DNA of 36,688 bases from an uncultured Chlamydiae bacterium (GCA_945957095.1 CAMFKD010000002.1:1-36688); one strand, 5' to 3'; positions 14,862 to 17,927 are shown, counted from the first letter of the stretch. Program-made: numbers and translations. The notes: generated by a model not told the origin, from the letters alone.

Positions 14862-14977
14862 ATTTTTTGGCGTGAATTTGAAGTTGTATATTACTAAAAA
14901 CAAAAGGCTTCAGTCGTAAAACTGAAGCCTTGAAATTGATTGGAGGTGGAGAGACGCATTCAGAACTTTTGATTGGG
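14862..14977 (-). repeat. att-like junction: copy of the ssrA downstream flank and terminator hairpin, the 13-nt ssrA 3' core, and an island arm
   Basis: 14862-14953 matches 19373-19465 at about 85% over ~92 nt by eye. The match includes the hairpin aaggcttcagt-N6-actgaagcctt and the core tggaggtggagag (14941-14953). 14954-14977 (acgcattcagaacttttgattggg) matches 17904-17927. Confidence 0.75.
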
Positions 14978-14995
14978 CGCAAATTATCGAAAATT

Positions 14996-15135
14996 GGCCG
15001 TATTTTGATAGATACGGCCACTTTCTATTTAATACGGCCAAAATAGCTTGAAAAATGGCCGTATTTCTGCTAAAATGGCCGTATTAGAGAGTAGAGGTGG
15101 CCGTAATGAGCTTGCGTGACAAGAAAATGGCCGTA
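14996..15135 (+). repeat. Array of seven GGCCGTA boxes (consensus AAAWTGGCCGTATT): iteron/operator-like
   Basis: Direct copies lie at 14996, 15057, 15077, 15099 and 15129. Inverted copies (TACGGCC) lie at 15013 and 15033. Most spacings are 20-22 nt. Box 1 and box 2 form a palindrome with a 10-nt spacer. Confidence 0.7.
15048..15076 (+). promoter_or_regulatory. Candidate promoter of the Fic operon, interdigitated with GGCCGTA boxes
   Basis: TTGAAA (15048-15053), a 17-nt spacer containing box 4, then TAAAAT (15071-15076), immediately followed by box 5. GAGG at 15094-15097 precedes ATG 15106. Confidence 0.4.
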
Positions 15136-16455
15136 TTGAGGCAGCTAGGACTGGAGTCCGAACCAGTTGGTCTGACGGAGCTCATGCTCCGACTTGGCGA
15201 GGGATATAAGGAACGCTCGCTTAGACGCTGGTTGGGTCTCTTAGTCGAAGAGGGAGCGGTCAAAAAGATCGGCCAGAAGAGAGGGACTAAGTACATCGCA
15301 GCTGGTCGATCGGAAGAGGCCAACGATGAAGTGAGCAGTTGTTTTAGTTCCGCCAGCTTAGAAGCTATTGAGGTAGTTAAGCGGCCCCTGTTCGAGCGGC
15401 AGCCAGTTGCTTATGCAGATGATTGGTTCGATAGCTATCAGCCCAATTCGAGCTACTATCTACCAGAAGTGCTGCGAAGGCAACTACTGGCATCGGGTGA
15501 GCGTGCCAATGGGCAAGATCCTGCAGGAACCTATGCACATCAGATTTTCAACAGGCTTATTATTGATCTGTCCTATAACTCGTCGCGCCTTGAGGGTAAC
15601 ACCTATTCGCTTCTCGATACAGAACGTCTACTTCTTCACGGTGATACAGCCGAAGGAAAGCTGAATGAAGAGAAGGCAATGATCCTGAACCACAAAGAGG
15701 CTATTCGCTATCTGGTCGACAATGCGCCGAGGATTGAAGTAAGTCGCAATGTTATCTGCACTTTGCATTACCTATTGTCTGATGGTTTAGTTGAGTCTTC
15801 AGAAGCAGGCAAAGCCCGTAAGCACGGTGTGCGTATTGGAGGATCCACCTACATCCCTTTTGAGGATTCAAGGAGATTGGACGAACAGTTAGAAAGGATT
15901 GCTCGCAAAGCGGCGCTAATTAGGGATCCTTACGAACAGAGTCTTTTTCTTTTGGTACATGTAAGCTACCTGCAAGCTTTCGCAGATGTAAACAAACGGA
16001 CTGCTCGCTTGTCGGCAAATATTCCATTAATCAAAGGCAACCTTGTGCCGGCAGCATTCAGGGATGTTCGGGTTGATGATTACATGGCTGCGATGATCGC
16101 TGTCTACGAACTGCAGGATGTGCGACCAGTAGTGGACTTGTATGTTTATTCTTATTTGAGGACGTGTGCGGCATATGATTCGACTGTCAAAGCCATGGGT
16201 TTCGATGAGGTGAGGGTGCGGTATCGTCAGGAGAGAAGAGAGGTGGTCAGGGAGGTGGTTCTGCGAGGGCTTGCGGGCGAGGAACTGAGGGCATTTGTGG
16301 ATGAGGAAGCTGGTAAGCGCGTGCCGATGGCTGTGCGAGATGGATTTGTTGCGGATGTTTTTGAGGACTTAGAGCAGATAGACGAGAACCGGCTAGCTGG
16401 ATTAGGGGTGACACCAGAGCAGCTGAAAATGTGGCAGGAACGGTCAAGACGTTAG
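15106..16455 (+). CDS. Fic/Doc family protein with N-terminal winged-helix domain and non-canonical active-site motif
   Basis: The N-terminus looks wHTH-like (LTELMLRLGEGYKERSLRRWLGLLVEEGAVKKIGQKRGTKY). An intramolecular inhibitory-helix motif SxxxEG is present (SSRLEGN), along with NHKEAIRYL. The Fic motif position reads QAFADVNKRTAR instead of HxFx(D/E)GNGRxxR, so His is replaced by Gln and the NKR is Doc-like. Alternative starts are GTG 15097 and ATG 15127. Confidence 0.8.
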   Translation: MSLRDKKMAVLRQLGLESEPVGLTELMLRLGEGYKERSLRRWLGLLVEEGAVKKIGQKRGTKYIAAGRSEEANDEVSSCFSSASLEAIEVVKRPLFERQPVAYADDWFDSYQPNSSYYLPEVLRRQLLASGERANGQDPAGTYAHQIFNRLIIDLSYNSSRLEGNTYSLLDTERLLLHGDTAEGKLNEEKAMILNHKEAIRYLVDNAPRIEVSRNVICTLHYLLSDGLVESSEAGKARKHGVRIGGSTYIPFEDSRRLDEQLERIARKAALIRDPYEQSLFLLVHVSYLQAFADVNKRTARLSANIPLIKGNLVPAAFRDVRVDDYMAAMIAVYELQDVRPVVDLYVYSYLRTCAAYDSTVKAMGFDEVRVRYRQERREVVREVVLRGLAGEELRAFVDEEAGKRVPMAVRDGFVADVFEDLEQIDENRLAGLGVTPEQLKMWQERSRR

Positions 16456-17282
16456 TGGCATCCTCAAAGCAGAGAATTCAAATGGATCCGAATTTGACGA
16501 AACTATCCAAACTACTGGATTTTGCAGCTGACGTAATGGATGCGGCGAACATACCTTCGCCGCTCCAGCAGCGGGGGGCAAAAAGGCATCTATTCATGTT
16601 AATAGTGGCTGGCCATAATTATTCGGAATCCGTTTTCGTGTTGTGCAAACAGGGGAGAACGCATGCGGCACATGTACTGCTTCGATCGCTTTGTGAGTGT
16701 TTGATCAAATCGAGATACCTGTACTGTAATCCGCGACTACATCTTTGGGAGTTACGGCTGGAGGCTTTCATTGAGAAGCGCAGACATCTGAACGGAATGA
16801 AGGGATTTCTTGCATCTAGTTACTCGACCGATGCACATAGGGCAAATCTCTCTATCGACGAAGTTGAGGCAAGTTTGAATCATCTGCACAATTCGATAGT
16901 ATATTGTGAGCGTTCCTATCGAAATTATGGAGGCAAATTTAATGGAGGGGAACCAGTTATCAGGGGAGTACTAAGTAAGGCGGAGTACGTTGATAGGCAT
17001 AACTCGGGTCTGAATGCCAAGTCAGAGTCGCTAGCTTACGTTTACCACCTAGTGTACCGTCAGCTCTCGTCAGCTGTCCATTTAGATGGGCGAAGTTTTT
17101 CTGACTTTTTGTCCTGGAGTGAGGATGGTTGCGAAACGCTGTTGAGTGGAAACCCCAAGGATGTCCCAGATGTGGCGAGGCTTGCTCTGTGGCTCTACCG
17201 CCAACTAATACGCCAGTTTTTTAGTGTCTATAGGCTTCCACATATCCGTCGGATGAATATCATATTGGGTGCTATCCTGTGA
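16431..17282 (+). CDS. All-helical hypothetical protein, DUF5677-like (tentative)
   Basis: It overlaps the Fic stop by 25 nt if it starts at GTG 16431; the alternative is ATG 16482. HVLLRSLCECLIKSRYL and YRQLSSAVH resemble my recollection of DUF5677 signatures. This is unverified. Confidence 0.55.
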   Translation: MAGTVKTLVASSKQRIQMDPNLTKLSKLLDFAADVMDAANIPSPLQQRGAKRHLFMLIVAGHNYSESVFVLCKQGRTHAAHVLLRSLCECLIKSRYLYCNPRLHLWELRLEAFIEKRRHLNGMKGFLASSYSTDAHRANLSIDEVEASLNHLHNSIVYCERSYRNYGGKFNGGEPVIRGVLSKAEYVDRHNSGLNAKSESLAYVYHLVYRQLSSAVHLDGRSFSDFLSWSEDGCETLLSGNPKDVPDVARLALWLYRQLIRQFFSVYRLPHIRRMNIILGAIL

Positions 17283-17305
17283 AGTTCTTTAATCTTGGAT
17301 AAATT

Positions 17306-17782
17306 GTGACAATCACTTTAGAAAAAGCTACGTCTGAAGATGCTGAAGCACTGCATGCTATACAAATTAAATCTTTTTCACCTGTTCTAGATAGATGCAA
17401 AGATTATGACACTAATCCTGCATGTGAACCTATAGATAAAACTCTCACAAGAATAACTGACCCATTAAAAGGCTTTTTTAAGATTTTAAAAGATAGTATT
17501 TTGGTCGGGGGTGTTGCCATCAAGCATATAGCCCCTGGAACCCTATTTTTAGGACCCATTTTTATTGACCCCGATTTTCAAAATCAAAAAATTGCTCAAA
17601 GGGCTTTAAAACTTATTGAAAACATGTTTCCTTCCGTAGATTTCATTGAGTTGCGTACCCTAGCTCAAGAAAAAGGCAACATTCATCTCTATGAGAAAAT
17701 GGGGTATGTGATTCATGGGGAATATAAAAAAATAAATAACTCGCTTGATCTAGTTTCTTTTAGGAAAAAAATAGCACGCTAA
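17306..17782 (+). CDS. Small GNAT family N-acetyltransferase
   Basis: GTG start, 23 nt after the preceding stop. 158 aa. The acetyl-CoA motif region is IFIDPDFQNQKIAQRALKLIE, followed by YEKMGY. Markedly AT-rich by eye. Confidence 0.7.
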   Translation: MTITLEKATSEDAEALHAIQIKSFSPVLDRCKDYDTNPACEPIDKTLTRITDPLKGFFKILKDSILVGGVAIKHIAPGTLFLGPIFIDPDFQNQKIAQRALKLIENMFPSVDFIELRTLAQEKGNIHLYEKMGYVIHGEYKKINNSLDLVSFRKKIAR

Positions 17783-17890
17783 ACTAAATCAGAACGAATG
17801 CCATGGATGCATGACTCTCGATTCAGCTGTTTGATGACAGATCGTTAGACATCCTCAGCAGGTATCCGCCCAAAAACTGTCAGAACGCTA

Positions 17891-17927
17891 TGGAGGTGGA
17901 GAGTCCCGTTCAGAACTTTTGACTGGG
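17891..17927 (-). repeat. att-like junction: ssrA 3' core plus island arm (which is also the rhuM 3' end)
   Basis: The core tggaggtggagag lies at 17891-17903. The arm tcccgttcagaacttttgactggg lies at 17904-17927 and matches 14954-14977 at about 19 of 24 positions. Confidence 0.7.

Follow-up and report, generated by a model that had tools for sequence, protein, structure and literature searches.

The three genes bracketed in this stretch of DNA by two tmRNA 3′ cores do not form a single system: the interval is a Fic-DUF5677 cassette fused to a one-gene GNAT cassette, the intervening junction having been lost, and the conserved functional unit is the Fic-like gene plus its upstream DNA. Our overall explanation, to which we assign a probability of about 0.6, combines fused tmRNA-site cassettes with a Fic/Doc-like protein that carries Gln in place of the catalytic His and would, as a self-repressed gene, constitute a mobile one-gene module. 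The relevant features of the window (the whole analysed stretch of 36,688 nucleotides) are the following.

14857-14940, minus strand: copy of the tmRNA downstream flank with terminator hairpin, 86% identical to 19369-19452
14941-14976: distal cassette junction, core TGGAGGTGGAGAG followed by ACGCA and the conserved arm TTCAGAACTTTTGATTGG
14996-15135: array of seven TGGCCGTAT sites, putative operator for the N-terminal winged helix
15048-15076, plus strand: sigma-70-like promoter (TTGAAA, 17-nt spacer, TG-TAAAAT), the best match of the region (10/12)
15106-16455 (alternative start 15097), plus strand: Gln-type Fic/Doc-like protein, 449 aa, Pfam Fic
16482-17282 (alternative start 16431), plus strand: DUF5677 protein, 266 aa, all-helical, Pfam PF18928
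17269-17275: fusion point of two cassettes, where homology switches and the separating junction unit is missing
17306-17782, plus strand: small GNAT acetyltransferase, 158 aa, GC 0.35, independent cargo
17891-17926: next cassette junction, TGGAGGTGGAGAG-TCCCG-TTCAGAACTTTTGACTGG
19453-19867, minus strand: tmRNA gene (ssrA), integration site of the cassette array

At the tmRNA 3′ end, small cassettes that lack an integrase are arrayed in tandem, and the interval 14941-17903 is part of this array. The 3′ terminal 13 nt of the tmRNA, which read TGGAGGTGGAGAG on the plus strand, occur as exact copies at 14941, 17891, 19453 (the true tmRNA 3′ end) and 21194, and the first three of these provide the direct repeats of a tmRNA-integrated island. 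The att bracketing proposed in an earlier, sequence-only reading is therefore correct, with the three genes placed between the cores at 14941 and 17891. Each cassette starts with the 13-nt core and a conserved arm; 5 nt past the core, both at 14941 and at 17891, the sequence is TTCAGAACTTTTGA(T/C)TGG. This 36-nt unit of core and arm also bounds cassettes at many chlamydial tmRNA loci and on the relaxase-bearing contig L087. On the distal side, the flank copy contains a terminator-like hairpin (14931-14904, minus strand), while the junction at 17891-17926 opens a cassette with a RhuM pseudogene and a methyltransferase. The cognate integrase of a tmRNA island was not found among the window ORFs of at least 220 aa that were scanned, and a crude motif screen of 36 ORFs near the junctions of related loci returned no integrase. 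The host of the array is an environmental chlamydia-like bacterium. Many genes of defence type are found nearby in the window, AbiEi/AbiEii and a RhuM fragment among them.

The Fic-like, DUF5677 and GNAT genes are all on one strand, their families were correctly named in the sequence-only reading, and their spacing is as given there: the DUF5677 gene either overlaps the Fic gene by 25 nt (GTG start at 16431) or follows it after a 26-nt gap (ATG start at 16482), and 23 nt separate it from the GNAT gene. We favour the ATG at 16482 because the DUF5677 homologues have 265-266 aa. The same reading took the trio for a candidate toxin or defence module, and as a claim of a new three-gene system it fails. 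From the core up to window positions 17271-17274, but no further, the nucleotide sequence is homologous to L087 (89%), L091 and L088, while homology to the GNAT cassette of L095 begins at 17269. In L095 the GNAT gene comes after that locus's own core and arm unit, and in L088 such units, at 1992 and 4431, flank the Fic-DUF5677 pair. The Fic-DUF5677 cassette thus occurs as such in L087, L088 and L091, and the GNAT-only cassette in L095. These breakpoints (17269-17274), together with the differences in GC content (Fic 0.50, DUF5677 0.47, GNAT 0.35), identify two fused cassettes.

The neighbourhood survey leads to the same conclusion. This GNAT gene stands beside a Fic homologue at none of 85 loci (80 in genomes plus the other Fic-DUF5677 loci); the sequence-only reading had itself stated that its module would fall if the three genes did not co-occur outside this genome. 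DUF5677 was scored at 1 of the 80 Fic genome loci, about 75 of the 80 lack it, and no neighbouring gene family is common to more than 5 of them. A close same-strand ORF follows the Fic gene in only 14 of the 80 loci, and these ORFs are heterogeneous. That the three proteins cooperate as one toxin or defence operon is therefore very unlikely, the idea being largely refuted already by the missing co-occurrence. The shared strand and the short gaps (26 and 23 nt) speak for such an operon, as do a single strong promoter upstream, the absence of a convincing terminator between the genes and the defence-type surroundings; against these stand the break in cassette homology, the low GC content of the GNAT gene compared with that of Fic, and the occurrence of GNAT homologues away from the other two genes. 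Fic and DUF5677 are both missing from the surroundings of five GNAT homologues (62-76% identity). The suggestion that the GNAT could be a tRNA-acetylating toxin fares no better: apart from one unnamed GNAT-family acetyltransferase, the eight listed relatives of solved structure are spermidine acetyltransferases of the SpeG type (E ≥ 0.003), no similarity to solved tRNA-acetylating toxins was seen at E ≤ 0.1, PADLOC gave no match, and the gene upstream is DUF5677 and not an antitoxin gene as in TacT/AtaT systems. The GNAT gene is unrelated cargo, plausibly transcribed by read-through from the Fic promoter.

The Fic-like protein matches Pfam Fic (PF02661) over residues 216-309 with 29.7 bits against a cut-off of 24. 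Its start is placed at the ATG at 15106 because P0001 has 449 aa. From the N-terminus, the chain comprises a winged helix (residues 1-66), the motif SSRLEGN (S159-N165), the active-site motif QAFADVNKRTAR (Q290-R301) and a helical C-terminal region (~350-449). In phmmer alignments with FICD structures (E = 3e-9), YLQAFADVNKRTARL pairs with YIHPFIDGNGRTSRL and SSRLEGNT with the inhibitory TVAIEGNT. Q290 is aligned with FICD His363 and VNK occupies the GNG position; from this register, the catalytic His is truly replaced by Q290 and not displaced elsewhere in the protein. The His-to-Gln change with its Doc-like NKR motif, the register on which it was read and the class II-like inhibitory motif were thus all rightly recognised from the sequence. 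The canonical AMPylating signature HxFx(D/E)GNGRxxR is lacking, while the inhibitory SSRLEG (residues 159-164) lies in the same chain, N-terminal to the core, as in class II Fic proteins. Catalysis is uncertain because Gln cannot take over the part that the general base plays in Fic and Doc.

The N-terminal winged helix, also predicted beforehand, is borne out by the AlphaFold model, in which residues 1-66 adopt an H-H-H-E-E topology (pLDDT 70-86), and by Foldseek, which matches this segment to the winged helices of Fur, ArsR, Z-alpha and F-93 proteins at ~2 Å rmsd. The rest of the model is poor (mean pLDDT 58, Fido core included), which puts the geometry of the active site out of reach.

The DNA upstream of the Fic gene holds seven TGGCCGTAT sites, at 14996+, 15013-, 15033-, 15057+, 15077+, 15099+ and 15129+, which cover the promoter, the start codon and codons 8-10; one of them lies in the promoter spacer and one directly after the -10 hexamer. 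The heptamer GGCCGTA thus occurs seven times in 140 nt, with one further copy in the whole 36.7-kb window. At least three upstream copies are present in 61 of the 80 homologous loci, with almost none elsewhere in ~17 kb, and the arrangement of sites and promoter is conserved in these loci. Across the family, 3-8 nine-mer repeats span the gene's own promoter, and the repeat sequence covaries with that of the winged helix: sub-families with another recognition region have TGTCCGAAT, TGGCCGGAT, TGGCCAGAT or TGGCCGATA, and plasmid sub-families have TGGC(G/T)GATAAC or TTGCGC(C/G)TA. Since the sites fall in the spacer, past the -10 hexamer and over the start codon, we infer that the N-terminal winged helix binds the TGGCCGTAT array and represses its own transcription; as judged from the DNA and protein sequences, the Gln-type Fic is a putative self-repressor of the CccR kind. 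A gene regulating only itself would need another output.

The Gln variant is neither rare nor confined to this site. Homologues were sampled as 8000 scored candidates, 80 genome loci, the top 120 matches and a set of representatives. Of the 8000 candidates, 7622 reached E ≤ 1e-5; clustering at 50% identity gave 3106 clusters at E ≤ 1e-3 and 544 at E ≤ 1e-30. Gln is found at the His position in 118 of the 119 proteins with a detectable motif among the top 120 matches, in 78 of the 80 genome loci and in 129 of the 131 representatives with the motif, the family consensus being Q-x-F-x-D-[VG]-N-K-R. SS.LEGN is conserved in the same three sets and invariant in alignment A1, so that the Fido core keeps both the phosphate-binding loop D-V-N-K-R-T-A-R and S-S-R-L-E-G-N. 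Chlamydiota, Legionellales, Francisellaceae and Piscirickettsia are over-represented among the hosts of the family, and free-living Proteobacteria have it as well. Single-gene Fic cassettes with flanking direct repeats exist at the tmRNA gene (L011, L013, L019), tRNA-Thr (L034) and other repeats (L028, L057). On plasmids, homologues have a resolvase, integrases or a trb transfer operon as neighbours. Neither a repeat nor a tRNA is close to many of the Fic loci. Taken together, these data point to the Gln-type Fic as a stand-alone, apparently self-repressed gene on mobile elements.

The DUF5677 protein belongs to PF18928 (60.2 bits, cut-off 27.1), a profile that also matches each of the 35 aligned relatives. 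Its structure model is confident and helical, and no structural match and no match to HEPN or another family was found. Four of its five homologues outside the window (≥57% identity) lie 15-26 nt downstream of a Gln-type Fic, in L087, L088-90, L091 and L014; the fifth, P0123, on a 944-nt contig, was left out. Fic-DUF5677 accordingly recurs in four other genomic contexts, and some of the Gln-type Fic genes have DUF5677 downstream as a facultative partner.

According to the reading that we prefer, the winged helix would bind the TGGCCGTAT array and shut its own promoter, and the Fido domain, with its own Glu as the gate, would either perform a Doc-like phosphoryl transfer without the His base or be a nucleotide-binding pseudoenzyme that controls DNA binding. 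Such a gene would be self-contained and self-repressed, persisting and spreading on tRNA/tmRNA cassettes, on plasmids and in integrase neighbourhoods. With less certainty, we infer that it fits a one-polypeptide addiction or defence module. DUF5677 would be an occasional passenger or partner and may be co-transcribed with Fic.

Whether this partnership is functional in the sub-lineage of the window, with the DNA-binding Fic for example controlling DUF5677 as an effector or toxin, or with DUF5677 as a Fic modulator, is doubtful. The pairing suggested from the sequence stands insofar as the four close homologues directly follow Gln-type Fic genes (P0123 left out) whose products fall into two separate clades of the Fic tree; it does not extend to the ~75 of 80 Fic loci without DUF5677. 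A distant DUF5677 gene lies behind a small XRE-type HTH gene (L092), which suggests a tendency of DUF5677 genes to follow a DNA-binding regulator, and R193 and H200 of DUF5677 are invariant with R-x6-H spacing. Relatives at 31-38% identity, however, have no upstream Fic, the L014 copy is truncated, the sister contig L002 has a stop codon at Y186 (at a coverage of only 3.8x), and no HEPN, other family or structural match was found. In Enterococcus, moreover, the candidates that conferred phage defence did not include the DUF5677 gene under test (PMC12632615).

A different role for the Gln-type Fic, as a catalytically dead, DNA-bound factor for excision, integration or transfer that binds beside att and is not a toxin, appears unlikely. 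In at least 8 chlamydial loci the array starts ~25-45 nt from the att arm, its number and mixed orientation of sites resemble arm-type arrays, Fic-only cassettes are flanked by att-type repeats, the cassettes lack an integrase, and plasmid homologues are directly beside recombination or transfer genes. Cassettes with the same core and arm but without Fic nevertheless exist (e.g., 17891-19452), so mobility is independent of Fic in cis; a repeat or tRNA is missing near many Fic loci; and a phosphate-binding loop and an inhibitory Glu conserved to such an extreme degree favour a functioning nucleotide site. No Fido protein is known to take part in recombination. Of similarly low probability is that the Fido domain is neither dead nor a Doc-like kinase and that, tethered to DNA, it serves small mobile cassettes as an enzyme or factor in a new way, such as driving or licensing their excision, integration or maintenance at tRNA/tmRNA genes, or catalysing a His-base-free phosphoryl or nucleotidyl transfer; the site array by att would then serve as an assembly platform. 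That the protein is secreted and acts as an effector on the eukaryotic host of these intracellular bacteria is the most improbable reading. It would agree with the taxonomic enrichment and with two AvrB/AvrC-like genes nearby, but the promoter-overlapping array that covaries with the winged helix points to a role inside the bacterium, and the family also occurs in free-living Proteobacteria.

The catalytic His defines Fic/Doc enzymes. The main interest of the locus is a widespread Fic/Doc-like protein in which Gln replaces this residue and which apparently represses its own promoter: a family of thousands keeps each of the other active-site elements, the inhibitory Glu included, under strong selection, and it spreads on plasmids and tRNA/tmRNA cassettes, notably in chlamydiae and other intracellular bacteria. 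Once found, its role would extend Fido chemistry, reveal a new nucleotide-sensing repressor or define a one-gene addiction or defence module, and the covarying pairs of operator and winged helix can serve directly as a test system. At the chlamydial tmRNA gene, in turn, the arrays of very small cassettes without an integrase are a largely unexplored route of gene exchange in the phylum.

Among known systems, P1 Doc is a Fido kinase that phosphorylates EF-Tu; it has the catalytic His and ~126 aa but no inhibitory motif within the chain, and Phd, encoded upstream, neutralises it. The loop D-x-N-K-R-T-A is common to both proteins, and BLASTP aligned Doc H66 with Q290. Unlike Doc, the window protein has Gln for His, 449 aa and an inhibitory motif, and no Phd gene precedes it, the site array being found there instead; it is thus not a kinase toxin of the Phd/Doc type. 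The class II Fic AMP-transferases FICD/HYPE are the best matches of solved structure and align throughout the inhibitory motif and the core, but they have HxFxDGNGRxxR where Q, V and K stand here at the His and GNG positions, and they lack the N-terminal winged helix. The Gln variant as such is not new: it was described in silico in 2015 as Doc clade D2 (Khater & Mohanty, PMC4454073), with 45 sequences, bacterial only and "usually single-domain", and QAFADVNKR is identical to the clade consensus Qx[F/Y]x[D/E][G/V]NKR. The protein described here differs from that clade in its 449 aa, its N-terminal winged helix, its class II-type motif and its helical C-terminus; the family has since grown to thousands, and its conserved array of upstream sites is absent from that description.

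Class II Fic proteins joined to a DNA-binding (w)HTH are known in CccR of Yersinia pseudotuberculosis, which represses its own promoter via repeats at the -35 and -10 hexamers (PMC9755527), and in CbFic2 of Coxiella (PMC10628234). In both, the HTH is C-terminal and the catalytic His is retained and needed; CccR acts through one palindrome pair, where the present family has 3-8 nine-mers. PADLOC returned weak partial matches of the Fic-like protein to SoFic and PDC-S04. SoFic, a stand-alone Fic of defence islands, has a C-terminal winged helix; it is canonical, with a structure solved with ATP, and the match to it (residues 152-305, E = 4e-9) concerns the Fido core only, motif and domain order being different. 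Finally, tandem islands, integrase-less satellites and cis-mobilisable elements are known at tRNA and tmRNA genes, and here too direct repeats of the tmRNA 3′ end bracket several units in tandem. The present units differ from such islands in their small size (1.5-3 kb, one to three genes), in the lack of a visible integrase in the window and in a single 36-nt junction that is common to many chlamydial genomes.

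Between the copies of the tmRNA 3′ core at 14941 and 17891 lie three plus-strand genes, just as the sequence-only reading had reported:

15106-16455, plus strand, Fic-like gene (Pfam Fic, 29.7 bits against a cut-off of 24)
16482-17282, plus strand, DUF5677 gene (60 bits against a cut-off of 27)
17306-17782, plus strand, GNAT gene (158 aa)

The gene spacings of that reading are exact. Of the two starts it had allowed for the second gene, homologue lengths favor ATG 16482 (and ATG 15106 for Fic), so that Fic and DUF5677 are separated by a 26-nt gap and do not overlap by 25 nt. The genes around the interval are of the accessory or defence type:

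5346-6725, PIN-PhoH gene
6726-8893, two tandem AvrB/AvrC-family genes, downstream of the PIN-PhoH gene
10129-12538, minus strand, HerA-like ATPase (HerA_C, E = 1e-175) with a GNAT
13015-14696, minus strand, complete AbiEi (DUF6088)/AbiEii type IV toxin-antitoxin/abortive-infection pair, just outside the distal junction
17910-18507, minus strand, split RhuM pseudogene
18589-19284, SAM methyltransferase
19453-19867, minus strand, tmRNA gene (ARAGORN)

The HerA-like ATPase overlaps a two-domain GNAT (Acetyltransf_1 plus Acetyltransf_18) by about 25 nt, and the two may constitute a two-gene accessory module. AvrB/AvrC-family domains are another branch of the Fido fold, and AvrB-like genes are unusual for a chlamydia-like genome. 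A related but rearranged AbiEi/AbiEii pair adjoins a GNAT homologue and the tmRNA gene at another locus (L093). The C-terminal piece of RhuM (17910-18314) covers profile positions 152-248 of 252, with an N-terminal-like piece at 18334-18507; the related array on contig L091 has a full-length RhuM. Contigs identical to the window come from metagenome assemblies, and the closest relatives of the Fic gene belong to Waddliaceae and other Chlamydiales MAGs.

The three genes had been proposed to form one toxin/defence system, an idea not supported by a neighbourhood survey of 80 genome loci, each with a Fic homologue of 50-84% identity (mostly Chlamydiota, with some Legionellales, Francisellaceae and other Gammaproteobacteria). 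By tblastn, DUF5677 was detected at one of these loci (L014, a truncated copy) and the GNAT at none. Fic has no conserved partner: when all ORFs within 5 kb were clustered, no family was common to more than 5 of the 80 loci, and the close same-strand ORFs present downstream of Fic at only 14 loci are mutually unrelated, several being housekeeping-like. As for the GNAT, five metagenome loci encode homologues with 62-76% identity, and neither Fic nor DUF5677 was found near any of the five. Nucleotide homology to three contigs carrying Fic and DUF5677, L087 (89%), L091 and L088, starts with the core at 14940 and breaks off at 17271-17274, where DUF5677 ends; homology to the tmRNA array L095, in which the GNAT directly follows its own core-plus-arm junction (5895-5928), starts at 17269. 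On L088, junction units at 1992 and 4431 bracket the Fic-DUF5677 pair. In base composition the GNAT differs from its neighbours, with a GC content of 0.35 (0.26 at third positions) against 0.50 in Fic and 0.47 in DUF5677. From the breakpoints and the GC contrast it follows that the interval is composite, a Fic-DUF5677 cassette fused to a GNAT cassette with loss of the intervening junction. The suggestion that the GNAT is a toxin is not supported either, its best solved relatives being SpeG-type acetyltransferases (E at least 0.003); we found neither a similarity link to tRNA-acetylating toxins nor an antitoxin gene. PADLOC returned no match for DUF5677 or the GNAT.

The core, TGGAGGTGGAGAG in plus-strand reading, is the terminal 13 nt of the tmRNA 3′ end and has four exact copies, at 14941, 17891, 19453 (the true tmRNA 3′ end) and 21194. 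The arm TTCAGAACTTTTGA(T/C)TGG stands 5 nt after the copies at 14941 and 17891, and an arm-related motif is also found at 21300. The segment 14857-14954 is an 86% copy of 19369-19466, which comprises the tmRNA end and the downstream terminator hairpin. Very small cassettes of 1.5-3 kb, holding one to three genes and no integrase, stand in tandem arrays at the chlamydial tmRNA gene (window 14941-21317; L008, L013, L014, L016, L018, L091, L088 and L095). Every array cassette opens with a common 36-nt unit consisting of the core TGGAGGTGGAGAG, 5 nt and TTCAGAACTTTTGATTGG, and most are preceded by a terminator hairpin. Many chlamydial tmRNA loci have cassettes delimited by this unit, and one locus often holds several of them; on L087, the contig with a relaxase, the unit adjoins the Fic gene and may represent attP. 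No recombinase acting on these cassettes was found: the window ORFs of at least 220 aa gave no Pfam integrase match and a crude, insensitive motif screen near the junctions detected none. On the 5′ side of the intact tmRNA gene, 21192-21317 contains a 54-nt tmRNA 3′-end fragment (with a 4-nt deletion) and an arm-like motif, separated from that gene by an MFS transporter gene (19915-21117). Their position beyond the MFS gene suggests that the tmRNA and MFS genes were themselves inserted or duplicated.

Close relatives of the window DUF5677 are few, only seven in 5.8 billion proteins. Outside the window, five relatives reach at least 57% identity; four of these could be located, and the fifth (P0123) is on a 944-nt contig. 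Each of the four is found 15-26 nt downstream from a Fic gene of the window's type, with Gln at the catalytic His position (hereafter Gln-type Fic), and they represent four further genomic contexts:

L087, Fic-DUF5677, contig with a MobA/TraI relaxase
L088-90, Fic-DUF5677
L091, Fic-DUF5677, tmRNA array with two Fic genes
L014, Fic-DUF5677

The trio is not supported as one system; a two-gene Fic-DUF5677 sub-module is possible. The pair is real but optional: in a neighbour-joining tree the Fic proteins paired with DUF5677 fall in two separate clades, and none of the DUF5677 relatives at 31-38% identity is preceded by a Gln-type Fic, although one comes after a small XRE-type HTH gene. The tmRNA array of L091 (6262-11951) contains a Gln-type Fic followed by DUF5677 and, in addition, a divergent Fic, alone in the cassette that is closest to the tmRNA gene; another DUF5677 is on the opposite strand.

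DUF5677 is modelled with confidence as an all-helical protein (pLDDT 89.5). Structure searches of PDB and BFVD with this model gave nothing significant (best E about 0.04-0.1, TM at most 0.35), and the sequence matches neither a PDB entry nor any further Pfam family. All 35 relatives share R193 and H200 (window ~17058-17081), an R-x6-H spacing reminiscent of HEPN nucleases that we regard as a lead and not as evidence; indeed, the 35 members matched no HEPN family even at E ≤ 5, nor was there a structural match. In the papers found, DUF5677 is either an untested candidate or a negative one; for instance, a tested Enterococcus DUF5677 gene was outside the five candidates giving phage defence (PMC12632615). 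The sister contig L002, from the same population, is 99.8% identical to the window across the interval with Fic intact, and shows at 5427-5984 a TAC-to-TAA stop at DUF5677 codon 186 with clustered substitutions nearby. This stop may be an assembly error, and we give it little weight because the coverage is only 3.8x.

The catalytic motif of the Fic-like protein was placed by phmmer against solved structures. Residues 157-347 align with FICD (E = 3e-9), with YLQAFADVNKRTARL over YIHPFIDGNGRTSRL and SSRLEGNT over the inhibitory TVAIEGNT of FICD. In this alignment the position of the catalytic His is taken by Q290, and those of the two Gly in GNG by V295 and K297; the earlier reading of Gln at the catalytic position therefore had the register right. 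In a BLASTP alignment with P1 Doc, Q290 falls on Doc H66 within D-x-N-K-R-T-A. The AlphaFold model, made with 27 close homologues, has a low mean pLDDT (58) and can be used only for the N-terminal winged helix and the C-terminal helices; with it, Foldseek gave only weak FICD matches. Residues 1-66 form an H-H-H-E-E domain (pLDDT 70-86) that matches the Fur, ArsR, Z-alpha and F-93 winged helices at ~2 Å rmsd, and two Fic homologues match HTH_IclR weakly. PADLOC matches of Fic are weak and partial only, NCBIfam has no match for Fic or DUF5677, and among PHROGs the Fic core matches phrog_11900 (E = 3e-29), a family of unknown function.

A word-indexed search retained 7622 of 8000 scored Fic candidates at E ≤ 1e-5, and an exhaustive search of 50%-identity representatives yielded 3106 clusters with E ≤ 1e-3, 544 of them with E ≤ 1e-30. 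A family-wide feature is the motif Q-[AP]-F-x-D-[VG]-N-K-R-[TV]-[AS]-R. It occurs in 118 of the 119 top hits with a detectable motif (120 in total), at 78 of the 80 genome loci, the remaining two being disrupted, and in 129/131 representatives with a detectable motif, down to ~32% identity. SS.LEGN is conserved in all three sets, and the entire Fido core is nearly invariant in the family alignment A1; the phosphate loop and the inhibitory Glu are retained. The Gln-type family is thus large and strongly constrained.

The region around the Fic start contains an array of short sites. Seven copies of the heptamer GGCCGTA (full site TGGCCGTAT) are found in both orientations within 14996-15135, mostly spaced by 17-24 nt with one gap of 30 nt; the rest of the window has a single copy. 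The best sigma-70-like match in the region is TTGAAA-17-TG-TAAAAT (15048-15076). One site falls in its spacer, one directly after the -10 hexamer, one over the Fic start codon and one over codons 8-10. Homologues show this layout again ahead of the gene: at 61/80 loci at least three copies lie within 300 nt before the Fic start, and the heptamer is nearly absent elsewhere in ~17 kb. Loci devoid of it have a different nine-mer in 3-8 copies, and the variant follows the winged-helix sequence.

Winged-helix sequence or Fic group, and the accompanying repeat
KERSVRRWL...IGQKRGTKY: TGGCCGTAT
xRTIRR(W/L)LN...SGxTxGAKY: TGTCCGAAT
Further Fic groups: TGGCCGGAT, TGGCCAGAT or TGGCCGATA
Thiothrix plasmid Fic copy: TGGC(G/T)GATAAC
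Paracoccaceae plasmid Fic copy: TTGCGC(C/G)TA

It is this co-variation that argues most strongly for the proposed roles of the N-terminal winged helix, binding of the site array and repression of its own promoter.

The Gln-type Fic gene travels on mobile DNA. The distance between the arm and the start of the site array is ~25-45 nt at eight or more loci. Direct repeats enclose Fic as the sole gene at the tmRNA gene (L011, L013 and L019) and at tRNA-Thr (L034), and other repeats do so on L028 and L057. Proteobacterial plasmid homologues with 32-48% identity, annotated "Fic family protein", adjoin a resolvase, a tyrosine integrase, a partial integrase or a trb transfer operon.

These features are consistent with a self-contained Fic unit that would persist on mobile elements like a one-polypeptide addiction or defence module. 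Its winged helix would repress its own promoter and, by read-through, any downstream cassette gene. The Fido domain probably still binds nucleotide, because in a dead site the anion hole and the Glu gate would not both have stayed invariant; the domain could either carry out a His-free phosphoryl transfer, as the Doc-like NKR loop would suggest, or serve as a ligand sensor for the repressor. There are two main alternatives. Possibly, Fic and DUF5677 are a true functional pair in the sub-lineage of the window; the four located relatives fit this, and the lack of a conserved partner across the 80 loci speaks for the self-contained unit. Alternatively, the Gln-type Fic could have a role in cassette excision or transfer, a reading to be set beside its sole-gene position between repeats and its occurrence next to resolvase or integrase genes on plasmids.

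An in silico study had already noted the clade to which the Gln-variant Fic belongs. This clade, D2 of the Doc subfamily, was described from 45 sequences and has the consensus Qx[F/Y]x[D/E][G/V]NKR with Gln for His; the authors regarded its proteins as usually single-domain and left open what they do (Khater & Mohanty 2015, PMC4454073). Our literature search found no experimental work on clade D2 or Gln-type Fic proteins. What is new here is the domain architecture of the Fic protein, the co-varying operator array and the association with very small tmRNA/tRNA cassettes in Chlamydiota. A precedent for self-repression by a Fic protein is the class II Fic CccR, which was experimentally shown to repress itself via repeats at the -35/-10 hexamers (PMC9755527); however, the HTH is C-terminal in CccR and N-terminal in the Gln-type Fic.
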